Assembly (NCBI GenBank): GCA_963842525.1
Contig: CAWJGT010000023.1
Coordinates: 96,001 to 160,000 of the forward strand
DNA length: 64,000 nt
Source of the DNA: an uncultured Holophagales bacterium
GTDB taxonomy: Bacteria > Acidobacteriota > Thermoanaerobaculia > Multivoradales > UBA5704
Reading direction: 5' to 3'
Numbering within the stretch: position 1 is the stretch's first letter; each line of letters begins with the position of its first letter. This document shows positions 1,791-39,413 of this stretch, in pieces. The notes under the pieces were generated by a model that saw only the letters and a list, made by a program, of their open reading frames with translations, was not told the origin of the DNA and did not search any database. The position numbers and the translations under genes were made by a program.

Positions 1791-2893
1791 CCGGCGTTCC
1801 CTCCTCCCGCCAGCCAGGAGATCCACCGCGCGTGGGGGTCTCCGGTCGCCAGCGACTCTTCCCGCTCCATCCGCCCGTCCCGCCAGACGGCGGCGGCGAG
1901 CCGGGTATCCCCCTGCGGCTGCTCGGCGCCGATCTGGACGACCTCGCGATCCTCGGACAGCCGGGTGAGCTGCTCCTCCAGGCCGCGGCGGAGCTCCGGG
2001 GTGAGCTGGGTGGTCAGGTAGGTGTGCACCACGCACAGCAGGGTGTCGGAGCGCAGGTCGGCGCAGCAGCGGGCCAGGTCGCGGCACACATCGGCCCGCA
2101 CCACGGGCCAGGGCGCGCGGCGCGCCAGCTCGACCGCGGCGCGGAAACGGGCGATGCGGTCGGGGTGATCGGCCCAGAGAAGGGCGGTGAGCCAGCGCAC
2201 CTCGTCGGGGCTCTCCAGGTTGGGTGGATCGAGCTCCAGGCCCAGCCGTTCGGCGATCGCCGGCGCCTGGGCTCCCCGCTGGCGGGGGATCGTGCCCTCC
2301 CGCACCTCGCAGCGCAGCCGCACCGGCGACGCCGTGTCCCCCGCCCACAGATCGCCGTCCGGAAGGACGAGCTGCATGGCGTACCGGTCCCAACAGAGAT
2401 TGAGACCCGCGCTGGCGCCGATCTCCACCAGGCTAACCGGCTGCGCGCCGTAGCGCAGCCCGAGCCACTCCAGCCCCAGGCGGATATAGACCGAGCGGCC
2501 GACCTCGTTGGTCTGGACGCTGCGGGACTCGACGAGCGGCTGGATCGTCTCCGCGTGCTCGGCGCAAAAGTCGCGGAAGAGGGGGAACGGATCCTCCTCT
2601 GGCGGCCGGCCCGCGGCCAGGTCCGCGTAGACGGCGGAGAGCGGATGGGAGACGCCGCGGAGGATCAGGTCGTGGACCGCCGCGAGCAGCATGAGAGCCG
2701 GGGACTGCCCCGGCCGGGAGCGGGCGGCGAGCCCGAGCAGGAACGGATCGCGGGCCGCCCCGGCGCTCAGCGCGCGGTAGAGCGGCGCGTGGCGGAAGAG
2801 CGCAAGGCTGGCCTCCTCGAAGACCAGCGCGGTCTCTTCCAGGTTCCGGCGCGGGCCGGAGGGGGGGGTGGGAGAGGCGGCGGGCCCGCTCAT
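1787..2893 (-). CDS. DUF2332 family protein (possible SAM-methyltransferase-like fold)
   Basis: Motifs VQTNEVGRS, LVEIGASAGLNL.WDRY, LLWADHPDR and a C-terminal DPHARWISW. Confidence 0.8.
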   Translation of the reverse strand: MSGPAASPTPPSGPRRNLEETALVFEEASLALFRHAPLYRALSAGAARDPFLLGLAARSRPGQSPALMLLAAVHDLILRGVSHPLSAVYADLAAGRPPEEDPFPLFRDFCAEHAETIQPLVESRSVQTNEVGRSVYIRLGLEWLGLRYGAQPVSLVEIGASAGLNLCWDRYAMQLVLPDGDLWAGDTASPVRLRCEVREGTIPRQRGAQAPAIAERLGLELDPPNLESPDEVRWLTALLWADHPDRIARFRAAVELARRAPWPVVRADVCRDLARCCADLRSDTLLCVVHTYLTTQLTPELRRGLEEQLTRLSEDREVVQIGAEQPQGDTRLAAAVWRDGRMEREESLATGDPHARWISWLAGGGNAG

Positions 2894-2895
2894 CC

Positions 2896-4905: not shown

Positions 4906-6741
4906 TCAGGCCACCTTGCGGTCGTCGACCCGCTGCTGCATCGCCCGTGCGACCTGGACCACGGACAGGTCACCGGGCGCGACCAGGTAGGCGCCGCCGT
5001 CGTAGGAGGTCGCCACCACGTGATCGCCGCTGCGCGCGAGCGAGCTGATGCCGTTGCCCGCGATCTCCCGGCGCGTCACCTTGCCGCTGGCGAGCTCGAC
5101 GCGGATCACCGTCCCCCAGTAATCGCCGACCACGACCGTGTCCTCGTCCCAGAAGCAGAGCGACTTGAGCGAGCGGCGGCCGAGGGGGATCGAGTGCAGG
5201 AGCTTGCCGTTGTCGAGCTGGAAGACCTTGACCGTGAAGTCGCGCGAGACGCTGGCGAGCCGTTCGCCGCTCGGGTCGAGATCGACGTCGTTGATGATGG
5301 CCGTGTGGCCGAGGTAGCTCTCCAGGAGCTCGCCCTCGAAGCTCCAGCCGAGCAGCAGGCCGTCGGCGCCGCAGCTCACGCCCATCGTCTTCGCCGGGTG
5401 CAGGCGTAGCGACTTGACGGCGCCCTCGTGGACGTGGATCTTGCCGCGCACCTGGCCGTCGGGGCCAACGCGCACGATGGCGCTGCTGTAGCAGCCGACG
5501 AACGACTCGCGCTCGTAGCCCGGGTGATGGGCGATGCGGATGGTGTTGATCGGCCCTTCGCCGAGGAAGACCTCGATGCCGTCGCGCAGGTTGCCGTCCG
5601 CCAGGCGGTAGATGTGGATCTTGTTGTCGTGCGCGCCGCCGACCACCATGCCGTACTCCTCGTCGAGGGTCACGGCGTTCATCAGCATGCGGCCCGAGGC
5701 AGGCTCGATGCGGGCGCTCCAGGAGGCCTCGTCCGGGGTGAGCCGGCCGAGGCGGATGTAGCCGTCGTCGCTCACCAGGGCGACCGTGCCGCCGGAGGAC
5801 GCCGAGGCCTCGTTGAAGCAGGCGTTGCCCGGCTCCTCGTCGATCCGGCCCACTTCCCGCGAAAGCCGGCCCGAGGCGGCATCCCAGACCAGGACCGTGC
5901 CGTCGAAGGTGCCGGCCACGATCTGCGAGCCGTCCGGGGTCCAGCTCAGCGAGCGCTCCCAGACCGAGGGGACGCGCTCCAGGCGGAGCTTTTCTTCGAA
6001 GGTCTCGCCGTCCCAGACGATCAGCTTGCGGTCGTAGGCCGCCGACAGGACGTCCCCCGTGGCCGGCGACACCGTAACTTTCTTGATGCCGGAGGTGTGG
6101 GCAGGGATCTCGCGGACGAGGTCGCCGGTGCCGGTGTCGAAGATGCGGATCGCGCCGTCGTCGCAGCCGAGGATGGCGCGGCCGTGCACCGGGTCGATGG
6201 CGCAGGTGTCGGTCTCGTTCTCGAACGGCCCCCAGACGCTCAGCAGCTCGCCGGTGTCGAGGTCCCAGACCCGCAGCGTCTTGTCGTCGCCCGAGGAGTA
6301 GATCCGGCCGTCCTGGTAGGCGAGCGACAGGACGTCCTTCTCGTGGCCTTCGAGGATGCGGAGGATGGCGCCCGTATTGAGGTCCCAGACGAGCACGCGG
6401 TGGTCGCGCGACGCCGAGACGCCGACCGAGTCGCCGGCAAAGACGAAGTCCTCAACGTCGTCGCTGTGCCCGCGCAGCACACGCAGGGGCCGGCCGGTCT
6501 CCAGGTCCCAGATGCAGGTGGTGTAGTCCGACGAGCAGGAGGCGGCCCGGCGGCCGGACGGATCGACGATCAGGCGGTTGACGAGGTGGCGGTGATAGCC
6601 CAGGAGCTCGACCTCCCCGGTCTTCAGATCGAACCGGGCGACTGCCCCGTCATAGGCCGAGGTCACGGCCTTGTCGGTCCCCGGGACGGCGGCCACACCG
6701 GTGACGGGCCCCCGGTGGCGCAGGAAGCTCAGCGAAACCAT
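4906..6741 (-). CDS. WD40-repeat double beta-propeller protein resembling toxoflavin biosynthesis ToxC
   Basis: Many GH..WD repeats. The N-terminal pattern H.GP..G.AA..TSAYD..H.HLVN..SSDY..GHSDDVE..ASRDHRV matches my recollection of ToxC. Strong RBS (AAAGGAG). Start overlaps the PKS-NRPS stop. Confidence 0.8.
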   Translation of the reverse strand: MVSLSFLRHRGPVTGVAAVPGTDKAVTSAYDGAVARFDLKTGEVELLGYHRHLVNRLIVDPSGRRAASCSSDYTTCIWDLETGRPLRVLRGHSDDVEDFVFAGDSVGVSASRDHRVLVWDLNTGAILRILEGHEKDVLSLAYQDGRIYSSGDDKTLRVWDLDTGELLSVWGPFENETDTCAIDPVHGRAILGCDDGAIRIFDTGTGDLVREIPAHTSGIKKVTVSPATGDVLSAAYDRKLIVWDGETFEEKLRLERVPSVWERSLSWTPDGSQIVAGTFDGTVLVWDAASGRLSREVGRIDEEPGNACFNEASASSGGTVALVSDDGYIRLGRLTPDEASWSARIEPASGRMLMNAVTLDEEYGMVVGGAHDNKIHIYRLADGNLRDGIEVFLGEGPINTIRIAHHPGYERESFVGCYSSAIVRVGPDGQVRGKIHVHEGAVKSLRLHPAKTMGVSCGADGLLLGWSFEGELLESYLGHTAIINDVDLDPSGERLASVSRDFTVKVFQLDNGKLLHSIPLGRRSLKSLCFWDEDTVVVGDYWGTVIRVELASGKVTRREIAGNGISSLARSGDHVVATSYDGGAYLVAPGDLSVVQVARAMQQRVDDRKVA

Positions 6742-9700
6742 CTCTGTTCTCCTTTCTGGATCTCGGAACGAACTTGTTGTCCGCCGCCGGGTGCGAGCAG
6801 GGACCGCAGGGCCTCCCGGCCGTGCTCGGCGAGCTTTTCGATCGTGCTCTGGCGGTGGCAGCTCTCGCTGTAGGTCCAGTCGATCTGCAGCCGGCCGTCG
6901 ACGACCGCGGCGGAGACGTAGACCAGGGCGGGCCGGGTGGTCGACGGATCGGCGAAGGCCCCGAGCGACCCGGCAGACACGCGCAGCAGCGAGTCCGGCC
7001 GCGGCGGCCGGATTCCCTGGTTGCCCCGGTAGTTGAAATGGACCTCGGCCGCGGGAAGCCGGCGTATCGCCGCCGCGATCTCCGGATGGCGGCTCAGGTA
7101 GCGCAGGACGCCATAGCCGAGGCCTTCGCGGGGGACTCTCCGGAGCTGCGCCGCCACCCCCCGCAGGCGCTCGGTGGGGTCGTCCGCCTCGGGCAGCTCC
7201 AGGACGACCGGATGGTCGATGGCGAACCAGCCGATGGTGCGCGTGACGTCGAGGTCCGCGAAGACCGGGTGCCGACCGTGGCCGACGAGACTGAGGAGCT
7301 GCACGGGGCTCCCGGTCCAGCGGGCGAGCGCGTCTGCGATCCCGGTCGCGAGCACCTCCTCGGCGGTGACGCCCAGCTCCCGCGGCAGTTCACGGAGGAG
7401 GGCCTCGGTCTCCCCGGCATTGAAGGCGGTCGACACGGCGCGGCGGGAGCGGGCGGTGTTGTGGCCGCCGGGATGGTCCAGCGGCAGGCGGACGGTGCGC
7501 TCCCAGGGGAGCCCCAGCCACCAGTCCGCCTCCGCCTCGGCTTCGGGCGAGCCGGCCCAGGCCGTGAGCCGCTCGGACCAGGTTTTGAACGAGACGAGCC
7601 GGGGAGGGACGCGGACCTCCTCGCCCGGCCCGCGCTGGACGAGCTGGCGGTAGATCGCCTCCAGGTCCTCGGCGAGGAGGCGGACCGAAACGTGATCGAG
7701 CGACAGGTGGTGTCCCACGAAAAGGAGGCGGTCCGGCACACCGGCGCCGAGCTCGAAGGCGACCAGCCGGAAGAGCGGCCCCTGCGAGAGGTGGAGGCTC
7801 TGCTGCACCTTCGCCGCTGCGGCTTCGACCACCCCCCGCAGACGGCCTCCGACAGGCAGCCCGGAGAGGTCGATCGTGGAGAACGGCATCTCCCCGTCCG
7901 GCTCGGCGGCGACCTGCCGCCACCCCTCCCCCTCTCGGTTATCGCGGAAGAAGCGGAGGCGCAGCGCCTCGTGATAGTTGACCAGGTGCCGCAGAGCCGC
8001 AGCGAGGCGCGCCTTGTCGAGGGGATGATCGAGGAGCTCGTCGACCTCGCAGAGCAGGCTCACGTTCCAGTGGTGCGGGTTGACGAACGGCCGCTGGAAG
8101 AACCAGTGCTGGTTGGGGGTGAGCGGGATCGGGCCGGTCTCCGGGGGCGGCGCGGCGGCGAGCGGCGCGCTCCCCTCGGCGACCGCCGCGAGGTCCCCCA
8201 GGCGGGGGTGCGCGAAGACCTGCCGCAGCTCCAAGGAGAGGCCGCGTTGGCGCGCCTTGCCGAGAAGGCGGATGGCGAGCAGTGAGTCGCCGCCCAGGGC
8301 GAAGAAGTGGTCGTCGCGCCCGATCTCCCGCACGCCGAGGAGGTCCGCCCAGACCTCCGCGAGGGCGATCTCCGCGGGAGTCTGCGGCAGGGCGAGCGCC
8401 GCCGGCCGGCGCAGGCCCTCCCCCTCGGGCCGCGGCAGGGCCTTGCGGTCCACCTTGCCATTGGGTGTCTTCGGCAGGGCGTCCAGGACGACGAAGGCGC
8501 CCGGCACCAGGGCCGCGGGCAGGCGGCCTTGGAGGAAGCCCCGGAGCTGGTCAGGATCAGGCGCGCTCCCCTCCTCCGCCGGCCGCACGGCGACATAGCC
8601 GACCAGGCGCTCGGCCGGTCCGTCATCCGTTCCGCTCCAGGCCACGACCGCGGCCTCGCGAATTCCAGGATGACCGAGCAGGGCGCTCTCGATCTCGCCG
8701 GGCTCGACCCGGATGCCGCGCAGCTTGATCTGCCGGTCGATCCGGCCGAGGATCTCGAGGGTGCCGTCGGGCCGGCGGCGGGCGAGGTCGCCGGTGCGGT
8801 ACATCCTCTCCCCCGGCCGGCCGCTCAGCGGATCGGGCCGGAAGGCCGCGGCCGTCAGGTCCGGGCGGCCGAGGTAGCCGCGGGTCAGCCCGGCGCCCGC
8901 GATCCAGAGCTCGCCGGCCACGCCGAGGGGCATCGGCGCGAGGTCCCGGTCCAGGACATGAAGGCGGACGTTCGCGATCGGCCGCCCTGCCGGGACGGTG
9001 CCGGTGCTGGCGTCCGCGTCCGTGAGCCGGTGGACGGTCGTGGTCAGCGTGCTCTCGGTCGGGCCGTACTGGTTGACGACCTGGACCGCGGGAGAGAAGA
9101 CCCGGCGTGCCCGCTCGCGGGTCGCGGCAGGGAGAGGCTCGCCGCTCGCCAGCACGAGCCTCACGGATTCGCCAGGAGGCCCTTCCGCATCGAGCAGCTC
9201 GGCGAGGAGCGTGGGGACCACGCTCGGCAGGCAGGTCACCCCATGCCTCTCGATCGCCCGGCGGAGTACCTGGGGATCGTGGGCCTCATCCTCCTCGACC
9301 AGCACGACCCGGGCGCCAGCCGAGAGCGGCCCGATCAGGTCGCGCAGGGAGGCGTCGAACGACAGCCCCGCGATCTGGAGGGCCACGTCGGACGGTCCCA
9401 GATCCCACTGCCGGAGTAGGTAGCCCAGGTAGTTGACCACCCCGCCATGCCGGCCGCAGATCCCCTTGGGCGCCCCGGTCGAGCCCGAGGTGTGGACCAC
9501 GTAGGCCAGGCCCTCGGGACCGGCGAGCGGAGGGAGATCGGAGCGGTCCTCGCTTGGCCCGTGGTCGAGCAGCTCCTCCCGGGTCAGCACGAGCCGCGGG
9601 CGGGTCGCTTCGAGGATCGCAGCCCGGCGGAGCGGCGGGGTATCCGGAGCGATCGGCACGTAGGCACCACCCGCCTTGAGCACCCCGAGGAGGCCCTCGA

Positions 9701-12700
9701 CCATTTCGAGCGAACGCCCGGCCTCCAGGGCGACTGTCACCTCCAGCCCGACGCCGAGCCGGCGCAGGTGGCGGGCGAGCTGGTCGGCGCGGCCGTTGAG
9801 CTCGGCGTAGGTGACCGACCGGTCGCCGAGCGTCAGGGCGACCGCGTCCGGGGCCTCGGCCGCCCGGGCCTCGAACGGCTCGTGGATCGCACGCGCGGCG
9901 AGGGTCTCCTCGTCCGTATCGTTGGGCTCGTGGACGACCTGGTGCCGCTCGGCCTCGGTGAGGAGCGGGAGGTCGCCGGGGCGCCGGGCAGGGTCTTCGG
10001 TGATCGCCGCAAGAAGCGTCTCGAGCTGGCCAGCCAGGCGCTGCAGCGCGGCCGTGGAGAACCGGTCCGCGTCGCCGATCAGGTGCAGCACGGTCCGGTC
10101 GGCCGGGAAGACCATGAGGGTCAGCGGATAGCCGGTCCGCCCCTCGGAGCGGAAGAGGTCGCGGATCACGGGACCCTCCCCGGCCCCGACCAAGTCCTCT
10201 CCCTGAGGGAGATTTTCGAAAATCACCAGGCTCTCGAAAAGCGCCTGGCCCGACGGCACCTCGCTGTGCTTCTGGACCTCCAGAAGCGGCACGTGCTCGT
10301 GCTCGCGCGCCGCCGACTGCTCGGCCTGGATCTCGTGCAGCCCGTCGAGGAGGGGCGCGTCGCCGCGCAGCCGGACCCGCACCGGCAGGGTGTTGATGAA
10401 CAGGCCAACCATCTGCTCGACGCCCAGGAGGGACGGGGGGCGGCCCGAGACCACGCCGCCGAAGACCACGTCCTCCTCGCCCGAGGTGCGGCCGAGCAGG
10501 AGCGCCCAGGCCCCCTGGAACAGGGTGTTCAAGGTCAGCCGGTGGCGCCGCGACAGCTCGCGGAGCCCTTCCGAGAGCTCCTGGGAGAGCGCACCCTGGA
10601 ACAGCCGGTAACTCCGCCCGGCCTCCTCGGCGGCCGGCCTCTCCGCGGGGAGCGGGGTCGGCGCGGTGAAGCCCGCGAGAGCGCGGCGCCAGAACGCCTC
10701 GTCCTCGGCGCGGCTGTTGGCCTCCAGCCAGGCTACGTAGTCCCGATAGGGCCTGACGTCCGGCAGCTCGATGCGCCGCCCCTGCCGGATCCCGGCGTAG
10801 AGGGTGAAGATCTCGCGGAACACCAGCGGCACGGACCAGCCGTCGAGCAGCAGGTGGTGGTAGCTCCAGACGATCTGGACGGAGTCGCCTCCAAGGTCGA
10901 AGGCCACGAGGCGCATCAGGGGGGCGAGCCGCAGGTCGAAGCCCCGGCGGCGGTCCTCCTCCAGGAAGGCGCGGAGCCGCTCCCGTTGCGCGGCGGGGCC
11001 CAGGGCGCGCCAGTCGACCCGCGTCCAGGGCAGCCCGGTAGTCCGGCGGACGACCTGGAGCGGCTCGTCGAGCCCCTCCCAGAAAAAGGCCGTGCGCAGG
11101 ATCGGATGGCGGGCGATCACCGCGCGCCAGGCCTGATCGAAGGCCTCGGCGTCGAAGCCGCCCTCGACGGTCCAACCCACCTGGAGCACATAGTCGCCGG
11201 AGCGCGGCGCGTAGAGGCTGTGGAACAGCACTCCTTGCTGGACCGGCGCCAGGCGGTAGGTGTCCTCCATGTCATCGAGAGCTACTTCGGCCAGGAGCGT
11301 GGCGAGCCGCTCCCGGTCGAAGACCGCGAGAGGGCGGCTCTCCGCCGGCCGGTCCGGCTCGGAAACCGTTCCCGCTCCCAGAGCCGCCGCGAGCTGCGCG
11401 ACGGTCTGGAATTCGAAGAGCTGGCCGGGGGCGATCTCCAACCCGGCGCGGCGCGCCCGGGCGACGATCTGGATGCCGAGCACCGAATCGCCTCCCAGCT
11501 CGAAGAAGTTGTCGTGGAGGCCGACCTCGGTGACGCCCAGCATCTCCCGCCAGAGCGCGGCGATCCGGCCCTCCAGCTCCGTGCGGGGCGCGGCATACGG
11601 GGTGCTCAGCGCGGGCCGGGCGTGCCGGGCCGCGGAGCCTGTGGGCTCGATGTCCGCAGCGGTTGCCGCCTTGTCGAGCAGGCTCGAGGAGGTCGCCGCC
11701 GCGGCCTCCGCCAAAGCAGCGTTCAGGTCGGTGGGCGAGATCACGACCTGCGGCGGCACCCGGTGCGCCAGCAGGCGGCGGAAGACCTCGATCCCCTCCT
11801 CGGGTGACACGCCCATTTCGAGGACCCGGGCGAAGGGATCGGCGCCGCTCCCCTTCTCCGCCTCGGCGGGTTGGGATTCGAGGGGCGAGCGGGCCCGGAG
11901 CTGCTCGGTCGGGTTGTTGACCCGCTTCTTGCCGTAGCCGCGGATCTCGACGAGCTCGGTGCCGTCCTCGTCCATCAGGACGACGTCGAACGAGATCGTC
12001 TCCTTGCGGGAGTAGTCCCGGTCCTCCAGCAGGCGGGCGTGGCTCCAGAGCTTCCGCGTCAACGGGGCGCGGATCTTCAGGCTGCGGTAGGCGAGCGGCA
12101 GGTAGAAGCCGTCTGTCAGGTCGACCAGGAACTGCTCCCCCAGGCCCGCGGCGCGGTCGAGCAGCGCCGGGTGAAGATGGCAGGCCGCGAGGTCCCCGGC
12201 GAGCAGCGCGGGCAGCTCGAGCGTGCCCAGCACCTCGCCGTCGCCGAGCCAGGCCTGCTGGACGGTCTGCCAGCGCGGGCCGAGGTCCTCGTACTTCTCG
12301 TCCTCGACCGCGGCGAGGACCCGGCCGCGGTCGCAGCGCGCGAGGATCTCCGGCAGGTCGTGCCGCTTCGGGGGCTCCGGAGCGAGCGGGCGCACCCGGC
12401 CGAGCATGGTCTCGTCCCAGGTCCCCGCGCCCGACCGGCAGGCGACCTTGAAGTCGAAGCCGTCCCCCGAGGCTTCGAGCTCCAGACGTACCTCCTTCTC
12501 CTCGTCCTCGCGCAGCCGGACCGGCGTCAGGAAGAAGACGTCGTGCAGCTCGACCGGACCCGGCCCCTGCCGCAGCGCGAACGCCGCGCGGGCCATCTCC
12601 AGGTAAGTCGTGCCCGGGATCACGGGCTGGCCGGCGATGCGGTGCTCGTCGGCCACCCACTGCCGCGCGGCGCTGAAGCGGGTGTGGAAGACGTCCCGCC

Positions 12701-15700
12701 CCGGCTCGGACCGGCGGCGGTCGAACAGGGGGTGCTCGACCGGCTCACCGTCGTCCAGCTCGGCCGGCTCCTCCGCGGGCCGCGCCTGCCCGGCCGCCGC
12801 GGCGAGCATGCCGACCTGCCGCCAGGCGCACCAGTCGATCGCCAGGGTGAACGGGCCGCCGGCCGACCGGCAGGCGTGCGCCCAGGCGTCGAGGAAGGCG
12901 TTGGCCGCGCAGTAATCGGCGCCGCCGGCCTGGCCGAAGAGGGCGCTGCGCGACGAGCAGACCACCAGGAAATCGGGCTCGTCGCCGAGCACCGCCTCCA
13001 GCACGCGCGTCCCCTGGACCTTCGGCGCCAGGACCGCGGCGGCGGCCTCGGCCGAGCGGAGCTGGAGGAAGGCGCCGGTCGAGACGCCCGCGGCATGGAC
13101 GACGCCATCGATCCGCCCGAACCGTTCGCGCGCAGCACCGACCGCCCGGCGCATCTCCTCTTCGGAGGCGACATCGGCTGCGAGGACCAGGACCTCCGCT
13201 CCCAGGTCCTCCAGTCGGGCCACCTGGCGAACTCGCGAGGCCGGCAACCCGGAGCGTCCGAGCAGGACGAGCTTGGCGCGCACCGTGCGGGCCAGGAGCT
13301 CCGCGATCGACAGGCCGATGCCACCGAGCCCGCCGGTGATCAGGTAGCAGCCGCCGGGGCGGAGCCGCGCCAGGTCTCCGGATTCCCCGGCTTCCCCCAG
13401 GCGGACGGGCTCGAAGGTCTGCACCCAGCGGTGGGAGCCGCGCCAGGCCACGACCTGGTCGTTTGAATCGGCGAGCAGCTCCTCGCAGAGGCGCTCGATC
13501 AGGGCAGTCCGCTCGCGCGGGGAGGCGGCCGGCAGAGTGTCAATGCTGCGGCAGCTCACCCCCGGGATCTCCTTGGGGATCACCTTCAGGGGGCCGAGGA
13601 GGGCCGCCTTCTCCGGCCAGAGCAGGTCGCCGCCCACGACCTCCTGCATCTGGCTCGATACAACGTCGATCCGCAGCGGCTCCGGGCTGCCGCGGCGGCC
13701 CAGAGCCTGAGCGAGCGCGATCAGGCTCTTGTAGCCGCGGCGCAGGTGCTCAGCCGCCAGATCCCGCCGCGGGGTCTCCTCCGCGAGGGATGCGCACCCC
13801 AGGTGGACGATGCGCTGGACGCCCGCGGGGAGAGGCTCCACCTCCTCCTGGATAGCGACCTCCTGCCCCAGCTCGGTGAGGCGCTCGGCGAGAGCGTTCC
13901 ATTCACCTCCTCCGAGGAGCAGCCACCTCTGCCGGGGCCTGTGGTCCGTGCCGAGCCGCTCGGCCAGGGCCGAGCGCCGCCAGCTCGGGACGTAGAACCA
14001 GTCCGCGAGGTCCGGCTTCCGCTCCGTGGCGGACAACCCGCGCTCGCTTGGCGCGGGCTCATACCAGTAGCGCTGGCGCTCGAACGGATAGGTCGGCAGC
14101 GGCACGCGCCGGCGCCGCTCGTGAACGGAAAACCCTTTCCAATCGACCGCGGCCCCCGCGAGCCACAGCCGCCCGAGCGTGGTCAGCAACGCGGCCCGCT
14201 CCGAGCCCCCTTCCTTGGGGTGGCGCAGCGAAGAGAGCACCAGCCGGGCGGACGACCGGGCCGGGTGCTGGCGCACCAGGGCCGCCAGCGTCGTGCCAGG
14301 GCCGACCTCCAGGAAGCCCGCGTCCGTCTCCCGGAGCACCCTCTCCACGGCCTCCGAGAAGCGCACGGTCTGCCGCAGGTGCCGCGCCCAGTAGAGCGGG
14401 TCCGTGGCCTCCCCGGCGGTGATCCAGGTGCCCGTGACGTTCGACAGGAAGGGGATCTCCGGCGGCTTGCGCGCCACCCGCCGCACCCGCTCCGCGAAGG
14501 CCGCGAGGACCGGCTCCATCAAGGGCGAATGGAAGGCGTGGGACGTGAGCAGCCGGCGGCAGACCACCGCCTGCGCCGCGAGGTCCCGCTCCACGCGCTC
14601 GATCGCCTCCGGGGTGCCCGAGAGCACGCAGAGCGAGGGCCGGTTGATGGCCGCCAGTGCGAGCTCCGGGGTCTCCGGACCGACCCGGTCGAGGATCTCC
14701 GCCTCCGAGAGGTGCACCGCCAGCATGGCGCCCGGCGGCAGCTCCTGGACGAGGCGCCCGCGGGCCGCCACCAGGTCCAGGGCGTCCTCCAGGGAAAAGA
14801 CGCCGGCCAGGCAGGCGGCCACGTACTCGCCGATCGAATGGCCGATCATTGCCTTGGGAGCCATCCCCCAGGACATCCAGAGCCGGGCCAGCGCGTGCTC
14901 GATCACGAAGAGCGCCGGCTGCGTGAGGAAAGTCTGGTCGAGCCGCTCGCCGCCCGCGAAGATCTCCTGCCGCAGGTCGCACCCCAGGGGCGCCAGGAGC
15001 CGCTCGGCGCAGCGGTCCACCTCGGCGCGGAACACCGGCTCGGATTCGTAGAGCTCCGCCCCATGCCCGCGTGCTGCGCGCCCTGGCCCGGGAACAGGAA
15101 CACCAGGGGCTGCTCCCGCGGCTCGTGAGTGCTGGTGTGGACCCGCGTCGGATCCAAGCTCGCGAGGTTGGCGGCCGCATCGGTGGCGTCGCGGCAGACC
15201 AGGATCCGGCGGTGGCCGAAGGCGCGGCGCCCCGCCTGGAGAGTGAAGCCAATGTCGGCCAGGTCGGCCTCCGGGCTCTCTTCGAGATGGCGGCGCAGAT
15301 TCTCGGTGGCGGACTCCAGGGCCGTCGCGGTCCGCGCCGACAGCACCAGGAGCTGCCAGGGGCGCGAGGGTCCCGAGGGCGCGGGCCGCGGCGCCTCCTC
15401 CAGGACCACGTGGGCGTTGGTGCCGCCGATGCCGAACGAGCTGACGCCCGCGCGCCGCGGGCCGTCCGTGGCCCAGTCGCGCAATTCGGCATTGACATAG
15501 AAGGGGCTGTCCTCGATCCCCAGGTCCGGGTTGGGCCGCTCGAAGTGGAGGCTGGGAGGGATCTGCCGGTGCTCCAGGGCGAGGACCGTCTTGATCAAAC
15601 CGGCGACGCCCGCGGCGGTGTCGAGGTGGCCGAAGTTGGACTTGATCGAGCCGAGGGCGCAGAAGGACCGCTTACCGGTGCGCGCGAAGACCTTGCGCAG

Positions 15701-16684: not shown

Positions 16685-20717
<4,033 letters not shown>

Positions 20718-20721
<4 letters not shown>

Positions 20722-21791: not shown

Positions 21792-21831
21792 GGTTCGTCA
21801 TCCCCATGCTCCTTATGTGTCCCCAGTCGGC

Positions 21832-22911
21832 TCAACGGGACAGCTCCGCGGGCCGCACGCTCTCCCAGGCCGTCGGGTCGGCCATGCCCACGACGACCTT
21901 GCGCTCCCCCTGGAAGGGCTCCCGGCCGTGGGCCACCAGCATGTTGTCGAGCAGCAGAATGTCCCCTTCCTGCCAGGTGAACCGCGTCCATTCCCGGCGG
22001 TAGAGGGCATGGAGCCGCTCCATCACCTCCGGCTCGATCGGCGAGCCGTCGCCGTAGTAGGTGTTGTTCGGCAGGTCCTCCTCCGGGATCTGCCCCAGCA
22101 GCCGGTCGCGGACGGCGGCCGGCAGGGTGGAGACGTGGAAGAAGGTGGCGTGGTTGAACCAGGTCAGCTCGCCGCTCCGCGGGTGGGCGGCGATGGCCGG
22201 GCGCACCTGGCGGGTGCGCAGCCGGCCGCCGGGCTTCCACTCCACCTGGATGCCGTTGGCGCGGCAGTACGCCTCCACGGCGTCGCGGTCGGAGGTCTGG
22301 AAGGCGGTCTGCCAGGGGAGTCCGAGCCCGTCGCCGAAGTTGCGGACGTATATGTAGCCCTGGGCGAAAAACCGCTGCCGGATCCCGGGGTCGAGGTCCG
22401 CGAAGACCCGGCGGCAGTCGGCGATGGGCGTGGCGCCCCCTTCGCGGGCCGCGCGCAGGCAGCAGAAGTAGATCTTCCTGGGAAAGGTCAGGTTGTACGA
22501 CTGCTCGTTATGGAGAAAAATTTCCTGGTCGGCCGGATGGTCGGTCGAGGTGTAGATCCCGCCGCCGACCGCGCTGCGCGGGGAGGAGCGTTCGACATAG
22601 GGGAGCGCGCCGCTCGAGCTCGCGGCCACGAAGTCCTCGAAGCGCTCGGCCGAGCCCACGCCGAAGCCGCGGAAGAGCAACCCGCCGTGGCGGGTGAGGA
22701 GGTCGTCGATCCAGCCATGGTGGGCCGCCGCCCAGCTCACCAGGTTGACGCCGTCCACGCGGGGCGAGACGACGAGCGGCAGGGGCCCGCCGGTGTCTGG
22801 AGGGTCCAGGGGTCCGGTCGTGACCAGCTCCTCGGGCGAGAGCTGAAGGGGCTTGCGCTGCATGGGCCGCCCCGCGCCGAACGCGGGCTTGTCGGGTCGT
22901 GGTGCGCTCAA
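21832..22911 (-). CDS. TauD/SyrP-like Fe(II)/2-oxoglutarate beta-hydroxylase (copy 1)
   Basis: TTG start overlaps the NRPS stop, with an AAAGGAG RBS. Motifs IFLHNEQSY, WFNHATFFH and DNMLVAHGREPF. Confidence 0.88.
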   Translation of the reverse strand: MSAPRPDKPAFGAGRPMQRKPLQLSPEELVTTGPLDPPDTGGPLPLVVSPRVDGVNLVSWAAAHHGWIDDLLTRHGGLLFRGFGVGSAERFEDFVAASSSGALPYVERSSPRSAVGGGIYTSTDHPADQEIFLHNEQSYNLTFPRKIYFCCLRAAREGGATPIADCRRVFADLDPGIRQRFFAQGYIYVRNFGDGLGLPWQTAFQTSDRDAVEAYCRANGIQVEWKPGGRLRTRQVRPAIAAHPRSGELTWFNHATFFHVSTLPAAVRDRLLGQIPEEDLPNNTYYGDGSPIEPEVMERLHALYRREWTRFTWQEGDILLLDNMLVAHGREPFQGERKVVVGMADPTAWESVRPAELSR

Positions 22912-25900
22912 GATAAAGGTCTCCTTTGTCTCCGGGCGAACCTCCCGGTTTTGGCCTCCTGCCATTGCCGGAGGCGCTCCGCCTTCCGTTCCTGCTCCGC
23001 GGCCGTGAGCACCTCCAGGGTGGAGAGCCGGGCCGCGGGATCGGCGGCGAGGCGGCCGAGCAGGGCTTCGAAGCGGCCATACAGTCTTTCTACGGTGGCC
23101 GCCGCGAAAAGGTCTGTGCTCCAGGTCCAGGCCGCGGTCAGGCCGCCGGCCTCCTCGGTGATCCAGAGGGTCAGCTCGAAGCGGGCCATGCCGGGGTCCA
23201 GGTCGAGGACCCGGAGGTCCAGGCCCGGCAGCTCGGCCGGGTGGTCCGGCGTGTTCTGCACGCCGAAGGCGACCTGGACGAGGGGCCGGCCGCCGGTCGC
23301 GCGCTCCCAGCGCAGCTCGGAGGCCAGCAGCTCCAGCGGCAGGTCCTGGTGCGCGAAGGCCCCCAGGGTCACCTCCCGTACCCGCGCCAGCAGCTCGCGG
23401 AAGGTGGGGTCGCCGGCGAGCGAGACGCGCAGCGGCAGCAGGTTGATGAAGCAGCCGACGAGCCCCTCGACCTCGCTGTGGTTGCGCCCGGCCACGGCGG
23501 CGCCGACCACGAGGTCGTCCTGGCCCGATGCGCGGTGGAGGAGGACGTCGAATGCGGCCAGGAGGAGCATGAACAGCGTGACCTTCTCGCTGCGGCAGAG
23601 GGAGCGCAACTCGCGGTGGAGCGCGCCCGGGATGCGGAACGACCGGCGCGCGCCCCGGCCGGTCAGCTCTTCTCGGCGAGGACGGTCGGCCGGGAGGTCG
23701 AGCGACGCGGGGCTGCCGGCCAGCGCTCTTCGCCAATAAGAAAGGTGCGTCTCCAGGGCTTCGCCGCGCAGCCAGCCGCGCTGCCAAGCGGCGTAGTCGG
23801 CGTATTGCACCGGCAGGTCCGGCAGCGGCGACGGGCGCCCTTCCGTGAAGGCCGGGTAAAGCGCGGCGACCTCGCGCACCAGGACGCCCATCGACCAGCC
23901 GTCGCCGGCAATGTGATGGATCGTGAAGAGCAGGATGTGGCGGTCCTCGCCGAGGCGCAGGAGGCCGAGGCGCAGCAGGGGCCCGCGCGCCAGATCGAAA
24001 GGGCGCCGCGCCTCCTCTCCGGCCAGGCGCAGCGCCTCCGCCTCGCGCGCCGACTCCGGGAGCGCCGCGAGGTCGACGACCGGCAGCAGCGTGCGCGACT
24101 CCCCCACGACCTGCACGAGCCGGTCGCCGCGCAGGACGAAGCTCGTGCGCAGGGCCTCGTGGCGGCGGACGATCTCGGCGAACGCCGCGGCGAGCGCCGC
24201 CGGCTGGAGGAGGCCCCGCAGCTCGACCGCGGCCGGCTGGTTGTAGAAGGGGCTCTCCCCGCCCGCCGTGCGGTCGACGAGCCAGATCCTCTGCTGCGCG
24301 AAGGAGATCGGCAGCTCACCCCGGCGCGAGGCCGGCGCCAGGGGCAGGATCGGAGGGGCCACGGCAGCCTGCCCTGCCGCGCGCTGGGCCTCCACAGCAG
24401 CGGCCAGTCCGGCAGGGGTCGGGGTCTCGAAGATCCGCCGCAGCGGCAGCTCGACGCCCAGGGCCTCGCGGATCCGCGACACCAGCCGCGTCGCCGCCAG
24501 GGAGTGCCCGCCCAGGGCGAAGAAATCGTCCTCGACCCCGACCCCCTCGAGGCCCAGGACCTCTTCCCAGATCCCGGCCAGCAGCTCCTCGACCGGGCTG
24601 CGCGGCACCCCGGAAGGACTGCCGGAGAGGCTGCCGGCGGCCTCCTCCGGGAGGGGCAGCGCGCGGCGGTCGACCTTGCCGCTCGCGCTGCGGGGCAGGG
24701 CCGGCAGGACGACCCAGGCCGCCGGGATCATGGCGGCCGGGAGCAGCCCCTGGAGGTGCGCGCGGAGGCTGGCCGCCTGCGGGGGCCGCTCGCCGCGCGG
24801 GGTCACATAGGCGACCAGCCGCCGGCCGCCGCGGCCGTCCTCGTGGGCCACGACCGCAGCCTCGCGAACCTCCGGGTGGGCCGCCAGCGCAGCCTCGACC
24901 TCGCCCGGCTCGATGCGGAACCCGCGGACCTTGACTTGGCGGTCGATGCGTCCAAGCACCTCGAAGTCGCCGTCCGGCAGCCGACGTGCCAGGTCGCCCG
25001 TCCGCAGCAGGCGCTCGCCCATCCGCAGAGGGAAAGGATGGGGGACGAACCGCTCGGCCGTGAGCGCGGGATGGCCGAGGTAGCCGAGGGCCAGGCCGGC
25101 GCCGCCGATCGAGAGCTCGCCCGCGATGCCCAGCGGCGCCGGGTTGCCCCAGGGATCGAGGACGAGCATCTCAGCGCCCTCGACCGGCCGGCCGATCGGT
25201 ACCCGGCCCGACGGCGGCAGGCCGGCCATCTCCCAGAGCGACGAGGTGATGGTGGACTCGGTGAGGCCGTAGCCGTTGAGCGTCCGGACCCGCGAGCCCG
25301 CGAGCCCGCGCCAGGCTTCGAGGGCGCGCTCCGGCACCGGCTCACTGCCGACGATCAGCAGGCGCAGCAAGGGGGGTGGCGGCGAGGCCGCCTCGGCGAG
25401 GGTCGACACCCAGCCCTCGAAGAAGGAGGACGGCAGGTTGAGCACCGTGAGCCGCTCGCGCTCCACGAAGCGCCGGAAAGCCTCCGTGGGCGCCGGCACC
25501 TCCTCGGGCTCCAGCACCACGGCGGCACCACGAATCCAGGAGGGGTAGAGCTCCTCGGCCGCGACGTCGAAGGTGAGGGAGGCGAGCTGGAGCACCCGGT
25601 CGTCCGCCGCCAACTCGTACCGGCGGGCCATGGCCAGGGCGTGGCGCGCCAGGGCGCGGTGCGGTACCAGCACCCCCTTGGGCCGGCCAGTCGATCCCGA
25701 GGTGTAGAGGACGTACGCCAGATCGTCCGGTCCCGCCGCGGAGCCCGGGACCGGGGACGGAACCGGATCGAGCACGTCGAGCCGGACCCCGTCCGCCTCC
25801 CCCGCCGCCAGGAGGAAGCGCGGGCGGGCGTCCTCGAGGACCACGTCGAGGCGCTGGCGCGGCGCCGAGGGATCGAGGGGCAGGTACGCGGCTCCGGCCT

Positions 25901-28900
25901 GGAGGATCCCCAGCATCGCAGCGCTGGCCTCGACCGAGCGCCGGAGCTGGATCGCCACGAGGTCTCCGGGTCCCGCGCCCGCGGCGGCCAGCCGGCCGGC
26001 GAGATCGCGGGCGAGGCCGGCCAGCTCTTCGTAGGTCACCTGCCGGTCGCCTGACACCAGCGCCACTGCCCCAGGGGTCCTGGCCGCCTGCTCGGCGAAG
26101 AGATGATGGACGCAGCGGCCTTCCGGAAGGCCCGGATCGTCGCGATCTGCGAGGAGCTGGGCCAGCTCGTTCTCTTCCAGCAGGGGGAGGTCAGACAGGC
26201 GGCAGTCCGGCCCGGCTGCCACGCCCGCCAGCAGGGACCGGAGGTGCCCTGCGAACCGCTCGACGGTCGCGGCGTCGAAGAGATCGGTGGCGTACTCGAA
26301 CGATCCTTCGAGCCCCGCGGGCGTCTCCTCCAGCGTGAGGCTCAGATCGAGCTTCGCCCGCACCTCCCCCGCCGGGACCGGCTGCACCTCCAGCCCGGCC
26401 AGGCGGAGGTCCGGCCGCGGAGCGTTCTGGAGGGCGAACATGACCTGGAACAGCGGGTTGTGCGACAGGTCGCGCGCCGGCAGCAGCTCCTCGACCAGCC
26501 TCTCGAAGGGGAGGTCCTGGTGCGCATAGGCGCCGAGGGAGATCGTCCGCACCCGCGCGAGCAGCTCCCGGTACGGCGGATCGCCCGCCAAGCCGGCGCG
26601 CAGCACCAGGGTGTTGACGAAGAAACCGATCAGGCCTTCCAGCTCAGCCCGGGTGCGGCCCGCGACCGGGGTCCCCACCGGGAGGTCGTCCTCACCGGTC
26701 CAGCGCTGGAGCAGCACGGCGAAGGCGGCGAGGAGTGTCATGAAGAGCGTGGCCCCCTCGCGGCGGCCCAAGGCTGCCAGCTCGCCGGCCAGCTCCGCCG
26801 GCAGCCGCAAGGCCCGGACGGCCCCACGCGAGCTGGGCATGGGCGGGCGCGGGCGGTCGATCGGCAGGGGCAGGGCCGCGGGCGCGTCCGCCAGGCTCTC
26901 GCGCCACCAGGCCAGCTCGGCGGCGAGCCGCTCCCCCCGCAGGCGCTCGCGCTGCCAGACGGCGAAGTCCGCGACCTGGAGAGGCAGCTCCGGAAGGGTT
27001 GAGGGCATGTCTGTGACGCAGGATTCGTAGACGGCGGCGATCTCGCGGACCAGCACGCCCATGGACCAGCCGTCCGCCGCGATGTGGTGGACCGTGACCA
27101 GCGCCGCGTGCTCCTCCGGGTCGAGCCGCACCAGGCGGACCCGGAGGACCGGCCCCCGCGCGAGGTCGAACGGGAGCAAGGCCTCCTCCCGCGCGAGACG
27201 CGCAAGCTCCTCCTCCCGCCGCACCGGAGCCAGCCCGGCGAGGTCGATCCGCGGCACGGCGAGAGGGACATCACGATCGATCACCTGCCGCGGCTCTCCG
27301 CCGCCTTCCGCGAAGCGCGTGCGCAGCACTTCGTGGCGCCGTACGACCTCGCGGAAGGCCGCTTCGAAGGCGCCGGCCGCGAGCCGCCCCGCCAGCCGGA
27401 AGGCCGCGGGGATGTTGTAGACGGGATCGCCGGGCTGGAGGCGGTCCAGGAACCAGAGCCGCTGCTGGGAGAAGGAGAGCGGGAGGTCCCCGTCCCGCGA
27501 GGCCCGCTGCAACGGCGGCTCCCCAGGCCCGGGCGCGGCGCCGAGGGCCTCCTCCACGCGCGCCGCGAAGCCGGCCACGGTCGGCGCCTCGAAGAGGACG
27601 TGCAGGGGGAGGTCGATCCCGAAGACCGTCCGCACCCGCGAGATCGCCCGGGTGGCGAGGAGCGAGTGCCCGCCCATCGCGAAGAAATGGCTGCCGCGGC
27701 CGGCGCTCTCGACACCGAGGAGCTCGACCCAGAGGCCGGCCACGACCTCTTCAAACGGAGTCCGCGGGGCCTCGGCCGTGCCGGCCTCCTCCTCCGGCCC
27801 GGGCGGGGGCAGCGCCCGGCGGTCCACCTTGCCGTTGGGGGTGAGGGGCAGCGCTTCGAGCGCGACCCAGGCCGACGGCACCATGTACGACGGCAGTTGC
27901 GACGCCAGGAGATCGCGCAGGCTCCCGGCGTCCAAAGTCCTCCCCGAACGGACCGCCACGTAGGCCACGAGACGCTTGTCGCCGGGCCGGTCCTCGCGCA
28001 CGATCACCGCCGCCTGCTCGACCGCAGGGCTGCGCAGCAGCGCCGCCTCGATCTCGCCCGGCTCGATGCGGAACCCGCGCACCTTCACCTGCTGATCGAT
28101 CCGCCCCAGGAACTCGATATCGCCGTCTGCCCGGCGGCGCACCAGGTCCCCCGTCCGGTACAGGCGCCCGCCCCCACCCCCGAACGGATCGGGCACGAAG
28201 CGCTCCGCGGTCAGATCGGGACGGGCGAGATAGCCCCGCGCCAGACCGTCGCCGCCGATCCACAGCTCGCCCGGCGCCCCCACCGGCACCGCGCGGCCAC
28301 GCCGGTCCACCAGGCAGATCCGGGTGTTGGCGATCGGCCGGCCGATCGGCACCGAGTACCGGCACGACGTCACGCTCAGCTCCGCGCAGCAGGTGAACGT
28401 CGTCCCTTCCGTCGGACCGTAGCCGTTGATCAGGCGGACTCCGGGAAGCTCCGCCAGAGCCCGGCGCACGTGCGGCAGCGACAGCGCATCGCCGCCCGCC
28501 AGGAGCTGGCGCAGCCCGCGCAGGATCCAAGGGCACGCGTCCATCACTTGGTGAAAGAGTCCCGCAGTCAGCCACAGCGTCGTGACCCCATGGCGCTCGA
28601 GCCCCTGTCCAAGCTCCTCCAGCGAAGGCATCCGCTCGGCCGGCAGCGCCAACCGCGCCCCGTGCAACAGCGCCCCCCAGATCTCGAAGGTCGAGGCGTC
28701 GAAAGAGATCGGCGCAATGTGGAGGAAGACCTCTGCGGGGCCGAACCAGGCGTAGGCGGTCTCCCGCACCAGCCGCACGACGCCGCGGTGAGGCACGGCA
28801 ATGCCCTTCGGCACTCCTGTCGTGCCGGAGGTGAACAGCACGTAAGCCAAGCCGTCGGCGCAGACCGGCACCTCCAGCGCCGTGTCCGGGCAGCCGGCGA

Positions 28901-31900
28901 TCGCCTCCGCCTGAGCCAGATCCAACACCCTGCGGCCGCCCGCCAACACCACCGCCGCCAGGGACCCCCGCGCCACCAGCACTCCCACTTCCGCCGCCAT
29001 CCGCTCCAGCCACTCCAACGGATACGACGGATTGAGAGGCAGGTACGCCCCGCCGGCCTTGAGGATCCCCAGCAGCACCGCCACCAGCTCGACTCCGCTC
29101 TCCAGCAGGACCCCCACCAGCGATTCCGGTCCGACTCCGAGATCCCGCAGACGGTGCGCGATTTGGTTCGACCAGCGGTCCAGTTCCCCGTAGGTGACCG
29201 CCCCTCCGTCCCACACCAGCGCCAGCGCCTCGGGCCTCTCCGCCGCCTGCGCCGCGAACAGCTCGTGGATGCACGCCTCCCGCGGATAGGCCGTGGCCAT
29301 GCCCATCGACAGCACCTGGAGCCGCTCCGCGGGCGGCAGCAAGGGCAGGTCCCCCACCGCCAGCTCCGGACCCGCCGCCACACCGGCCAGCAGAACCGCC
29401 CACTGCTCCGCCAGCCGGACCATCGTCGACGCGTCGAACAGCTCCGTCCGGTACTCGAAGCTGCCCGCCACTCCCGCCTCCGTCTCCGCCAGCGACAGAG
29501 TCAGATCGAACTTCGCCTGCCCCGTCTCCACCGCCACCGGCTCCAGCCGCAGACCTGGCAGCTCCAGGCTCCCCAACGGCGCGTTCTGCAGCACGAACAC
29601 CACCTGGAAGACCGGCGTATGGCTCAACGAACGTTGCGGAGCGATCTCCTCGACCAGCTTCTCGAACGGCAGGTCCTGATGCGCGTAGGCCTCCAGCGTC
29701 GTCTCGCGCACCTGCTTCAACAGACGTAGAAACTCCGGGTCCTCCCTCAGGTCCGCCCGCAGCGCCAGGGTGTTGACGAAAAAGCCGATCAGCGGCTCGG
29801 TCTCCACCCGGTTGCGATTGGCGATCGGCGAGCCCACCACCACGTCCTCGACCCCGCTGAACCGGTGCAGCAGAACGTCGAACGCCGCCAGCAGGGTCAT
29901 GAACAGGGTAACCCCCTGCCGCCGGCTCAGCCGCCCGAGCTCGGCGAGCCGCTCCGCCGGCAGCGCCACCGCCAAACGCCCGCCCTGGAAGCCCTGCACC
30001 GCCGGCCGCGGCCGGTCTGTCGGCAGCTCCAGCAGCGCCGGCGCTCCGGCGAGGCGATGGCGCCAGTGAGCCAGCCGGACCTCCAACGCCTCGCCCGCCA
30101 GCCAGCCACGCTGCCAGACGGCGAAGTCGGCGTACTGGATGGGCAGCTCCAGGAGCGGCGAGGCTCGGCCCGCCGCGAACGTCGGGTAGAGCGCCGTCAG
30201 CTCCCGCACCAGCACACCCATCGACCAGCCATCCGAGACGATGTGATGCAGGGTCAGCAGCGCCAGATGCTCCTCGGGCGCCAGCGCCACCAGCACCACC
30301 CGCACCAGCGGACCGCGCGCCAAATCGAAGGGACGCGCCGCCTCGCTCCGCGCCAGGCCTTGCGCCGCGGCATCGCGCAGGTCCCCGGGAAGAGCGCGCA
30401 GGTCCACCACCGGCACCGCCAGAGAAAGCGGCGGCGCGACCACCTGCACGGGCCGCCCCTGGACGCTGGCGAACGTTGTCCGCAGCGACTCGTGACGCCG
30501 CGCGATCTCATCCAGGGCCGCGGCAAAGACCCGCCCATCCAGCGCCCCCGAGACGCGTACCGCCGCCGGCACGCCATAGGGCGAGCCGCCCGGCTCGAGC
30601 TGGTCGAGAAACCACAACCGCTCCTGGGCGAAGGAAAGCGGCAGCGGCTCCTCTCTCGACACTCGCACCAGGGGCGCCACAGCCACCAACCCCGCCCCCT
30701 CCTCGCCGCCGCGCAGCGCCGCCTCCACTCGCCCGGCCAAGCTCGCCACCGTCGGCGCAGCGAAGAGCTCGCGCAACGCCAGCTCCACGCCGAAGGCGTC
30801 CCGCAGGCGCGAGACCACCTGCGTGGCCAGCAACGAGTGGCCGCCCAGCTCGAAGAAGTTCTCCGCCAACCCCACTCGCTCGACACCCAGCACATCGCAC
30901 CAGATCCCGGCCATCAACTGCTCGGCCGGCGCGCGCGGCGCCACGAATCCTTCACCGCCCCGCGCCGCCTCCGGCGCCGGCAGCGCCTTGCGGTCCACCT
31001 TGCCATTCGGCGTCAGCGGCAGCTTGTCGAGGACGACGAGCTCCCCGGGCACCATGTACTGGGGCAGTTGAGACGCTAGAAGCTCCCGCAGGCGGCCGGC
31101 CTCCAGCGTCGCGCCCGGCCGCATCGCCAGGTAAGCCACCAGCCGCTTGTCGCCCGGGCGGTCCTCCCGCACCGTCACCACCGCCTGCTCGACGGCTGAA
31201 CTGCGCAACAGGATCGTCTCGATCTCCCCCGGCTCGATGCGGAAGCCCCGCACTTTCACCTGCTGGTCGATGCGGCCCAGGATCTCCAGCTCGCCATCGG
31301 CCCGGTAACGCGCCAGGTCCCCCGTCCGGTACAAGCGGCCGCCCCGGCCGCCGAACGGGTCGGGGACGAACCGATCGGCGGTCAGCTCGGCGCGGCCGAG
31401 ATAGCCCCGCGCCAGGCCGTCGCCGCCGATCCACAGCTCCCCCGCCACGCCCATCGGCACCGCGCGGCCGCGCCGGTCCACCAGGTAGATCCGGGTGTTG
31501 GCGATCGGCCGGCCGATCGGCACCGAAACCGGGCATGACGCCGCGCTCAGGTATGCGCAGCAGGTGAAAGTCGTCCCTTCCGTGGGTCCGTAGCCGTTGA
31601 TCAGTCGCACTCCGGGAAGCAGCTCCAGCGCCCGCCGCACGTGCGGCAGCGACAGCGCATCACCACCGGCCAGGAGCTGGCGCAGCCCGCACAGGATCCA
31701 GGGGCAGGTATCCATCACCTGGTGGAAGAGACCCGCCGTCAGCCACAGCGTCGTCACCCCATGGCGCTCGAGGCACCGCCCAAGCTCCTCCAGCGAAGGC
31801 GTTCGCTCGGCCAGCAGCGCCAACTGCCCGCCGTGGAGCAGCGCCCCCCAGATCTCGAGCGTTGACGCATCGAAGGAAATCGGTGCCAGGTGGAGAAAGA

Positions 31901-34011: not shown

Positions 34012-34015
34012 CACT

Positions 34016-39413
<5,398 letters not shown>

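Follow-up and report, generated by a model that had tools for sequence, protein, structure and literature searches.

A conserved offshoot of NRPS epimerization domains without the catalytic glutamate, a candidate chain-release domain of a hybrid assembly line in an uncultured Holophagales bacterium

The window analyzed here is a stretch of 64,000 nucleotides (G000:C23:96001-160000, ~70% G+C) from the genome of an uncultured Holophagales bacterium, which was assembled to 9.95 Mb in 34 contigs. It carries a hybrid assembly line of nonribosomal peptide synthetase (NRPS) and polyketide synthase (PKS) modules, the genes of which all lie on the minus strand, from 39413 to 6729. The line ends with the open reading frame 6729..15035 (minus strand), which encodes AT-KR-DH-ACP-C-A-T-E* and, as assembled, starts within the AT domain. 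E* denotes the terminal domain, a relative of the epimerization (E) domains of NRPSs, and is the subject of this work. Its features are the following:

6732 to 8150, minus strand: E*, the terminal E-derived domain, 473 aa (residues 2296-2768 of protein P0001), condensation fold
7686 to 7712, minus strand: HHLSLDHVS, the His motif of E* (E-domain norm HHxxxDGxSW)
7269 to 7286, minus strand: VGHGRH, replacing the E4 motif EGHGRE
6729 to 6731, minus strand: stop codon of the E* gene

The reading frame of E* is uninterrupted and open across its 473 codons. Both histidines and the aspartate of the His motif are retained, with Gly changed to His and the Trp after Ser changed to Val, and the remaining E motifs were found as PLTPNQHWFF, RTIGWFAIDHP, PREGLGYG, and HFNYRGN. 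A phmmer search against PDB matched E* to 15 sequences, including 10 with E domains (PvdL, TycB3, GrsA, BacC, TycA; E-values from 2.4e-82 to 2.7e-47) and 5 C or Cy chains at 2.1e-5 to 6.1e-4, and the E-specific model TIGR01720 gave 84.1 bits against a cut-off of 74.2. The AlphaFold2 model (predicted local distance difference test 88.2, predicted template modeling score 0.86) was built from a 17-row alignment that included canonical E domains and may bias it towards the E fold; in Foldseek comparisons, it reached template modeling scores of 0.82-0.86 to E domains and ~0.70 to C domains. By sequence and by predicted fold, E* belongs to the E subfamily and not to the ordinary C domains.

Canonical E domains carry the second His of HHxxxD and a catalytic Glu (E882 in TycA, E892 in GrsA), and are positioned between an aminoacyl- or peptidyl-carrier domain and a downstream D-specific C domain. 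E* has the His (HHLSLD), has Val at the position of the Glu, and is the last domain of the line; a first-pass annotation, made from the sequence alone, had described it in the same way, as E-like, terminal, and devoid of the E4 Glu (with VGHGRH placed at ~7270-7287), and this description is borne out. The genome has 13 other E-type domains, every one of them with E.HGRE and HHLxxD[G/A]VSWR. When 118 canonical E domains and six E* relatives were aligned, the column of the first Glu of the E4 motif contained Glu in 98% of the canonical domains and Val in 6/6 relatives; eight rows had been removed from the canonical set before this count, seven of them actinobacterial (TTGHGRE or AVAGHGRE) and the eighth the aberrant P0252. 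Between the second His and the first Glu, the canonical domains most often show a spacing of 138 residues (the mode), and TycA (H743/E882) and GrsA (H753/E892) one of 139 (PMC8905534), so that the residue missing from E* is the catalytic Glu, the first position of EGHGRE. Other changes are fixed as well: in the His motif, Val or Leu follows the Ser in place of Trp, GWFT is GWFA (Thr to Ala), and the last Glu of the E4 motif is lost. Measured against the canonical sequences, the deviation of these motifs exceeds chance.

C-terminal E-like domains from actinobacteria form another clade that lacks the first Glu. It has a support of 100 in the Shimodaira-Hasegawa-like approximate likelihood ratio test (SH-aLRT) and reads TTGHGRE and HHLVVDAISRD. 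The respective proteins (P0208, P0215, P0231, P0232, P0237, P0256, and P0262) are built solely from C and T domains.

The E* clade comprises at least nine distinct sequences, those of the window, genome G056, proteins P0152, P0154, P0476, and P0488, and loci L020, L021, and L024; L024 is partial, L020 is cut at the N-terminus, and protein P0487 is identical to L021 across the E* domain. Because the database searches were word-based, further members surely exist. In a set of 92 genomes from the bacterium's own family, G056 alone has a close relative (51% identity, E-value 4.7e-130; the next match has 3.5e-107), and the five named proteins and three loci came from protein and metagenome searches, in which seven confirmed loci included three of E* type, three with canonical E domains, and one divergent. 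No additional member was found in a sample of 401 genomes of the phylum, which gave one other match (G129, 43% identical, motifs not separately read). A scan of genome contigs with two narrow peptide patterns recovered only L019, a duplicate of the G056 locus, and in a search of representative proteins, the best 150 matches, ranked mainly by the summed scores of multi-E proteins, held no close match other than the window's own protein.

In trees with ordinary C domains as the outgroup, the E* members group as a single clade (SH-aLRT 100 with six rows and a stem of 0.52; 98 with eight rows) that falls inside the E radiation, on a branch that these trees do not fix, and not within a CT or LCL-type clade. 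The first Glu is absent from all nine members (Val in eight, Thr in P0488), HHxxxD is retained in each of the eight members that cover this motif, FNY is present in all, and the blocks WL.LPWE, VQLL, and GWFA recur across the clade. E* is C-terminal in every member with a visible protein end; the short tails behind it are not conserved across the clade, and no shared docking helix was seen in them. The ratio of nonsynonymous to synonymous substitution rates (dN/dS) of E* is 0.33 between G056 and L020 and 0.49 between G056 and L021, compared with 0.29 for KS, 0.37 for AT, and 0.38 for KR in the same comparison; E* is under constraint, although somewhat less so than the core PKS domains. In five members (G056, P0152, P0154, L021/P0487, and P0488), KS-AT-KR-DH-ACP directly precedes E*, so that these lines offer no amino-acid alpha-centre to invert; a C-A-T module intervenes only in the window and in P0476.

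PKS modules of the KS-AT-KR-ACP type in P0162, P0187, P0193, and P0233 end in E-type domains that keep E.H.RE. Thus, E-type domains behind PKS carriers are not limited to the E* clade.

Pfam searches of the E* protein and of the other scanned open reading frames of the window revealed no thioesterase (TE) and no terminal reductase, in accordance with the claim that the line ends with a GGDSL-type carrier and an E-like domain without either of them. The finding that would have spoken against a terminal E*, a continuing NRPS with a DCL domain and a TE just left of the window, was looked for on the contig from base 1: C23:1-102,731, up to E*, contains no NRPS, PKS, or TE domain, in a domain scan that rests on C-A-MT-T, KS, AT, KR-DH-ACP, E*, and TE queries. 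The synthetase and TE domains of C23 are confined to 102,732-135,866 (this cluster) and to the region from 276,284 onward (another cluster), and the nearest TE lies in another cluster, ~116 kb past the other end of the window. The G056 cluster has no TE within ~70 kb. A related line in G005 (G005:C4:4378-27464; L041, L040) has the order KS-AT-KR-DH-ACP-C-A-T-C-A-T-C, and its last C domain is an ordinary one (HHVLTDGWS). This line is followed by genes for MacB, GTP cyclohydrolase II (GCHII), a Zn-dependent alcohol dehydrogenase, a WD40 protein, and a sulfotransferase, and has no TE within ~90 kb. Across these clusters, a condensation-family domain occupies the site at which a release domain is expected.

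E* might still be a proton-transfer enzyme, either a slower epimerase that works with the His alone or, in the PKS-linked members, an isomerase of enoyl- or alpha-substituted acyl-ACP, with release taking place elsewhere. The E* carrier is of the GGDS type, and GGDS-type carriers partner E domains; PKS modules that end in E-type domains with intact motifs are known from the proteins listed above. The His, the Asp, and the FNY motif, all retained in E*, were reportedly found to be important in GrsA by Stachelhaus and Walsh in 2000. The importance of the His and the Glu in GrsA is documented, and the E892A variant is reported to lose epimerase activity only about six-fold, with roughly a sixth of it left (PMC8905534). 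The statement of the first-pass annotation that epimerization needs the Glu was therefore too strong. On the other hand, the residue that is Glu in nearly all canonical E domains is absent from the whole clade and is the non-ionisable Val in eight members, five members have a reducing PKS module where an amino acid would be needed, the contig holds no downstream DCL-type domain to use a D-residue, and the line would be left without any release function. We consider continued proton transfer to be quite unlikely.

Our preferred reading, to which we assign a probability of roughly 45%, is that E* is a neofunctionalized descendant of E domains by which a hybrid line without a TE off-loads its chain. 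As in terminal release domains, E* is last in a line without a TE or reductase and keeps the catalytic His. We infer the release chemistry as follows. The completed chain, held on the last carrier as an acyl or peptidyl thioester, would enter E* from the donor side, as in an E domain, and both the docking of the donor-side carrier and the His base would be inherited from E domains. The second His of HHxxxD would activate a nucleophile that is not bound to a carrier, and this nucleophile would attack the thioester. With the Glu, the second acid/base, replaced by Val, the alpha-proton would no longer be shuttled efficiently. Repurposing, which the first-pass annotation had proposed, rather than decay fits a conserved clade that is terminal wherever the end is visible, keeps HHxxxD, and has a dN/dS of 0.33-0.49.

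Several points weigh against this reading. By analogy with GrsA E892A (PMC8905534), loss of the Glu would weaken epimerization and would not by itself abolish it. The predicted fold of E* is nearer to E than to C domains, and its acceptor side may therefore be closed. The dN/dS of E* above that of KS suggests that the constraint is partly relaxed. The window copy diverges most within the clade, with no more than 48-52% identity to the other members, whereas neighboring genes are 73-87% identical to those of G056. In a genome with over 100 C domains and 14 matches to TEs, a release enzyme encoded elsewhere is possible. In L021, no WD40 or GCHII gene lies within 10 kb on either side of E*, and hence the neighboring module described below is not an obligate neighbor. 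The cluster as assembled has several frame breaks. Finally, as LgrA shows, an E-like domain can be kept at a C-terminus although it is inactive (PMC10510592).

E* shares the subfamily and the fold of canonical E domains (TycA-E, GrsA-E, TycB3-E, PvdL-E2), their motifs E1, E2, E5, E6, and E7, and a GGDS-type carrier upstream, but differs from them in the changes of Glu to Val, the last Glu to His, DG to DH, SW to SV, and GWFT to GWFA, in ending the line without a DCL domain downstream, and in that most of its relatives follow a PKS ACP. The fungal CT domains, such as TqaA-CT, likewise belong to the C superfamily, stand at the end of TE-less lines, and keep the catalytic His; they are not derived from E domains, whereas E* clusters inside the E radiation. 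CT domains carry SHxxxD (PMC10510592), and their acceptor channel is blocked, as in E domains, and the chain is released with an internal nucleophile (PMC11546977). A bacterial terminal C domain, GdnB C13, releases its chain onto putrescine, a free amine (PMC10587159). Like this domain and the VibH-type amide synthases, E* is a terminal condensation-family domain for which a soluble nucleophile is proposed, and in the G005 line an ordinary C domain stands last, next to the same module; unlike E*, which matches C domains only at ~1e-5, these are ordinary HHxxxDG C domains. The end domain of LgrA resembles E* in being E-like, C-terminal, and thought not to epimerize, but its chain passes to the C domain of LgrB, whereas E* has no synthetase after it on the contig and its altered motifs are conserved across a clade.

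E* could instead be a catalytically silent platform of a structural or recruiting kind, comparable to the X domain of glycopeptide synthetases, to interface domains, or to the inactive end of LgrA, on which the last carrier would be kept for a trans-acting enzyme, such as the WD40 protein, a hydroxylase, or a free-standing hydrolase, an explanation on the unlikely side in our judgment. It would account for the loss of the catalytic Glu in 9/9 members with the E-like fold kept, for the somewhat relaxed constraint (dN/dS 0.33-0.49), and for the overlap, in the window, of the WD40 gene with the end of the E* gene, and another C-like domain without the His motif is present in the same cluster. The X domain of glycopeptide synthetases precedes a TE. 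Non-catalytic domains of the C superfamily are known (PMC11546977, PMC10510592), and the X domain, like E*, has a C/E fold, belongs to the last module, and is repurposed (PMC11546977). However, X has lost the His motif (HRxxxDD) and recruits P450s, and interface domains are recruiters without the motif as well, whereas in the E* clade HHxxxD persists in 8/8 members and FNY in every member, with E* closing the line. Moreover, in G056 the WD40 gene lies apart from E*, and the contig has no downstream synthetase that would need a docking partner.

The genes next to E* are candidates for the supply of the nucleophile proposed under our preferred reading. These genes, together with a group of genes found near E* in other loci, are:

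4906 to 6741, minus strand: ToxC-like WD40 protein; 13-nt overlap of its start (ATG) with the end (stop) of the synthetase gene
2896 to 4863, minus strand: fusion of RibB-like, GTP cyclohydrolase II, and NodH-like sulfotransferase parts
1787 to 3250 (frame), minus strand: DUF2332 protein
696 to 2393, minus strand: GT4 glycosyltransferase, with a 72%-identical homologue in the G056 cluster
L017:5426-8116, L020:2654-5257, and L021:12713-15418, with the G000 orthologue at C9:1525392-1528112: lantibiotic-dehydratase N-terminal-like (LanB-N-like) genes

The first-pass annotation had attributed the nucleophile to translationally coupled ToxC-like and RibA enzymes. The "RibA" gene is in fact a fusion, with a weak RibB-like part (78 bits), an intact GCHII part, and 255 C-terminal residues that match a NodH-type sulfotransferase structure (PDB 9vki, 6.2e-20). 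The WD40 protein has at least 786 relatives at E-values up to 1e-20 (8000 candidates scored); the 120 matches listed are 60-100% identical, and four of them, at 60-72% identity, are named "toxoflavin biosynthesis protein ToxC" by the Joint Genome Institute (JGI); NCBIfam gives no such name. The coupling is in keeping with the overlap of the two genes in the window but is not conserved, since in G056 the WD40 gene comes after another synthetase gene and not after the E* gene.

The association of these genes with E* was found in three of the four loci with enough flanking sequence (the window, G056, and L020), and the WD40 homologues P0271 and P0288, on contigs equal in length to those of P0152 and P0488, suggest two further cases of co-location with E*. 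In G056, the cluster of the window recurs in rearranged form, with the FAAL-NRPS, both TauD genes, C'-A-MT-T (77% identity), WD40 (87%), and RibB-GCHII-sulfotransferase (77%) on one strand and MacB and KS-AT-KR-DH-ACP-E* on the opposite strand. The WD40 gene occurs in 7 of the 92 family genomes. A sulfotransferase stands beside it in five of the six contexts read and was not found in the short G035 contig, and a GCHII gene is near it in the window, G056, G061, G044, and G005; in some genomes, the sulfotransferase is a separate gene.

Two other neighbors were rejected as parts of the unit. DUF2332 has no homologue in the G056 cluster, and what seemed to match it in G056 and L020 is the RibB-GCHII-sulfotransferase gene read in an alternative frame. 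The LanB-N-like gene is found beside E* in G056, L020, and L021, but the G000 orthologue lies on another contig.

Within toxoflavin biosynthesis, ToxC has been proposed to attach glycine to a GTP-derived pyrimidine provided by ToxB and ToxE (PMC13755311; bioRxiv 10.1101/2025.05.27.656397). The recurrence of the module of GCHII, ToxC-like, and sulfotransferase genes makes an amine-bearing pyrimidine derivative attractive as the nucleophile; an internal hydroxyl, for which the two TauD hydroxylases speak, is no less plausible. Of the nucleophiles that would share the probability of our preferred reading, a small amine or hydroxyl compound from the ToxC-like WD40 and RibB-GCHII-sulfotransferase module comes first, though unlikely if taken by itself; an internal hydroxyl or amine, with cyclization like that by CT domains, is somewhat less likely, and water less again. 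In its most specific and decidedly doubtful form, the proposal is that E* would couple the finished lipopeptide-polyketide thioester to an amino group on a product of the module, either a GTP-derived diaminopyrimidine or a sulfated heterocycle processed by the ToxC-like protein. Internal cyclization, hydrolysis, or a non-catalytic role of E* fits the data about as well as off-loading onto a product of the module. The interpretation of the first-pass annotation is partly supported, and the specific origin that it named for the nucleophile stays conjectural.

Release sets the final shape of nonribosomal peptides and polyketides and is known to be carried out by thioesterases, reductases, and a few condensation-type domains; in the open-access literature searched, no E-derived release domain was described. 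If our preferred reading is true, E* would be a new way to end synthesis and a new entry in the condensation-domain superfamily, and LLFxGHHLxLD, V[GV]HGR, and GWFA would make up a terminator signature for genome mining. Coupling to the product of the module would furthermore make E* the first epimerase-derived domain to act as an amide-forming release catalyst, and would define a class of natural products with a pyrimidine or azapteridine-type head group. E* marks TE-less clusters in little-studied bacteria, and the adjacent module of ToxC-like, GCHII, and sulfotransferase genes is itself uncharacterized.

The assembly line upstream of E* is composed as follows:

39431 to 41878, minus strand: MacB/FtsX-type exporter, upstream of the line
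34281 to 39413, minus strand: FAAL-T-C-A; frame breaks run across the gene set 22908..39413
32254 to 34119, minus strand: C domain gene
22908 to 32300, minus strand: A-T-C-A-T-C-A-T-C
21835 to 22905 and 20718 to 21791, minus strand: two TauD-type dioxygenase genes
16681 to 20721, minus strand: C'-A-MT(FkbM)-T module, with C' lacking HHxxxDG
14903 to 16684, minus strand: KS domain, in another frame than AT
11379 to 15035, minus strand: PKS part AT-KR-DH-ACP, with the open frame extending to 15671
9939 to 11267, minus strand: condensation domain with HHLLLDGWS
8454 to 9875, minus strand: last adenylation domain, specificity code not recognized
8166 to 8372, minus strand: last carrier (T) domain, GGDSL type, FFALGGDSLLAI; GGDSLLAI at 8271-8294

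Frame breaks were found at ~15055, ~32280, and ~34300-34500, and two A domains are broken. At ~15055 (within 15040-15100, minus strand), a G-run is one base shorter than in the G056 homologue, which splits KS from AT. Other NRPS genes of the assembly are split likewise, with the breaks in homopolymer runs, and therefore the breaks are probably assembly indels, true pseudogenization being the alternative. These breaks, together with the divergence of the window E*, are what could be expected if E* were a functionless, decaying remnant of a degenerating or mis-assembled cluster. This explanation is highly improbable, given that E* has an open frame across 473 codons, a confident AlphaFold2 model, the same substitutions in nine sequences from different assemblies, and a dN/dS well under 1, and that the breaks in homopolymer runs recur in other NRPS genes of the assembly.

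By GrsA numbering and code tables, the codes of the A domains would read Asp, Val, Val, an unassigned one, Glu, and another unassigned one. The idea of an inactive E domain placed after glycine was set aside, as the code of the last A domain by GrsA numbering, DARSLSQLTK, does not appear to be the Gly code, which is weak evidence. In the C-A-MT-T protein, C' reads LPALAADAATL at the HHxxxDG site and comes directly after the two TauD genes and a protein whose last domain is a normal C domain; C' may be akin to a hydroxylase-recruiting interface domain. The PKS module at 11907-15035 (minus strand) is of the type AT-KR-DH(PS-DH type)-ACP, with KR ahead of DH, the reverse of the usual DH-KR order. 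The candidate gene "orf150" (21788-22240) was rejected as an alternative frame across the second TauD gene. A weak glyoxalase/bleomycin-resistance-like open reading frame (41922-42929, minus strand) adjoins MacB and is also present beside the WD40 gene in G061. Farther away in the window are a TPR-CHAT protein (47994-50192, minus strand) and an IS110-family transposase (61183-62493, minus strand).

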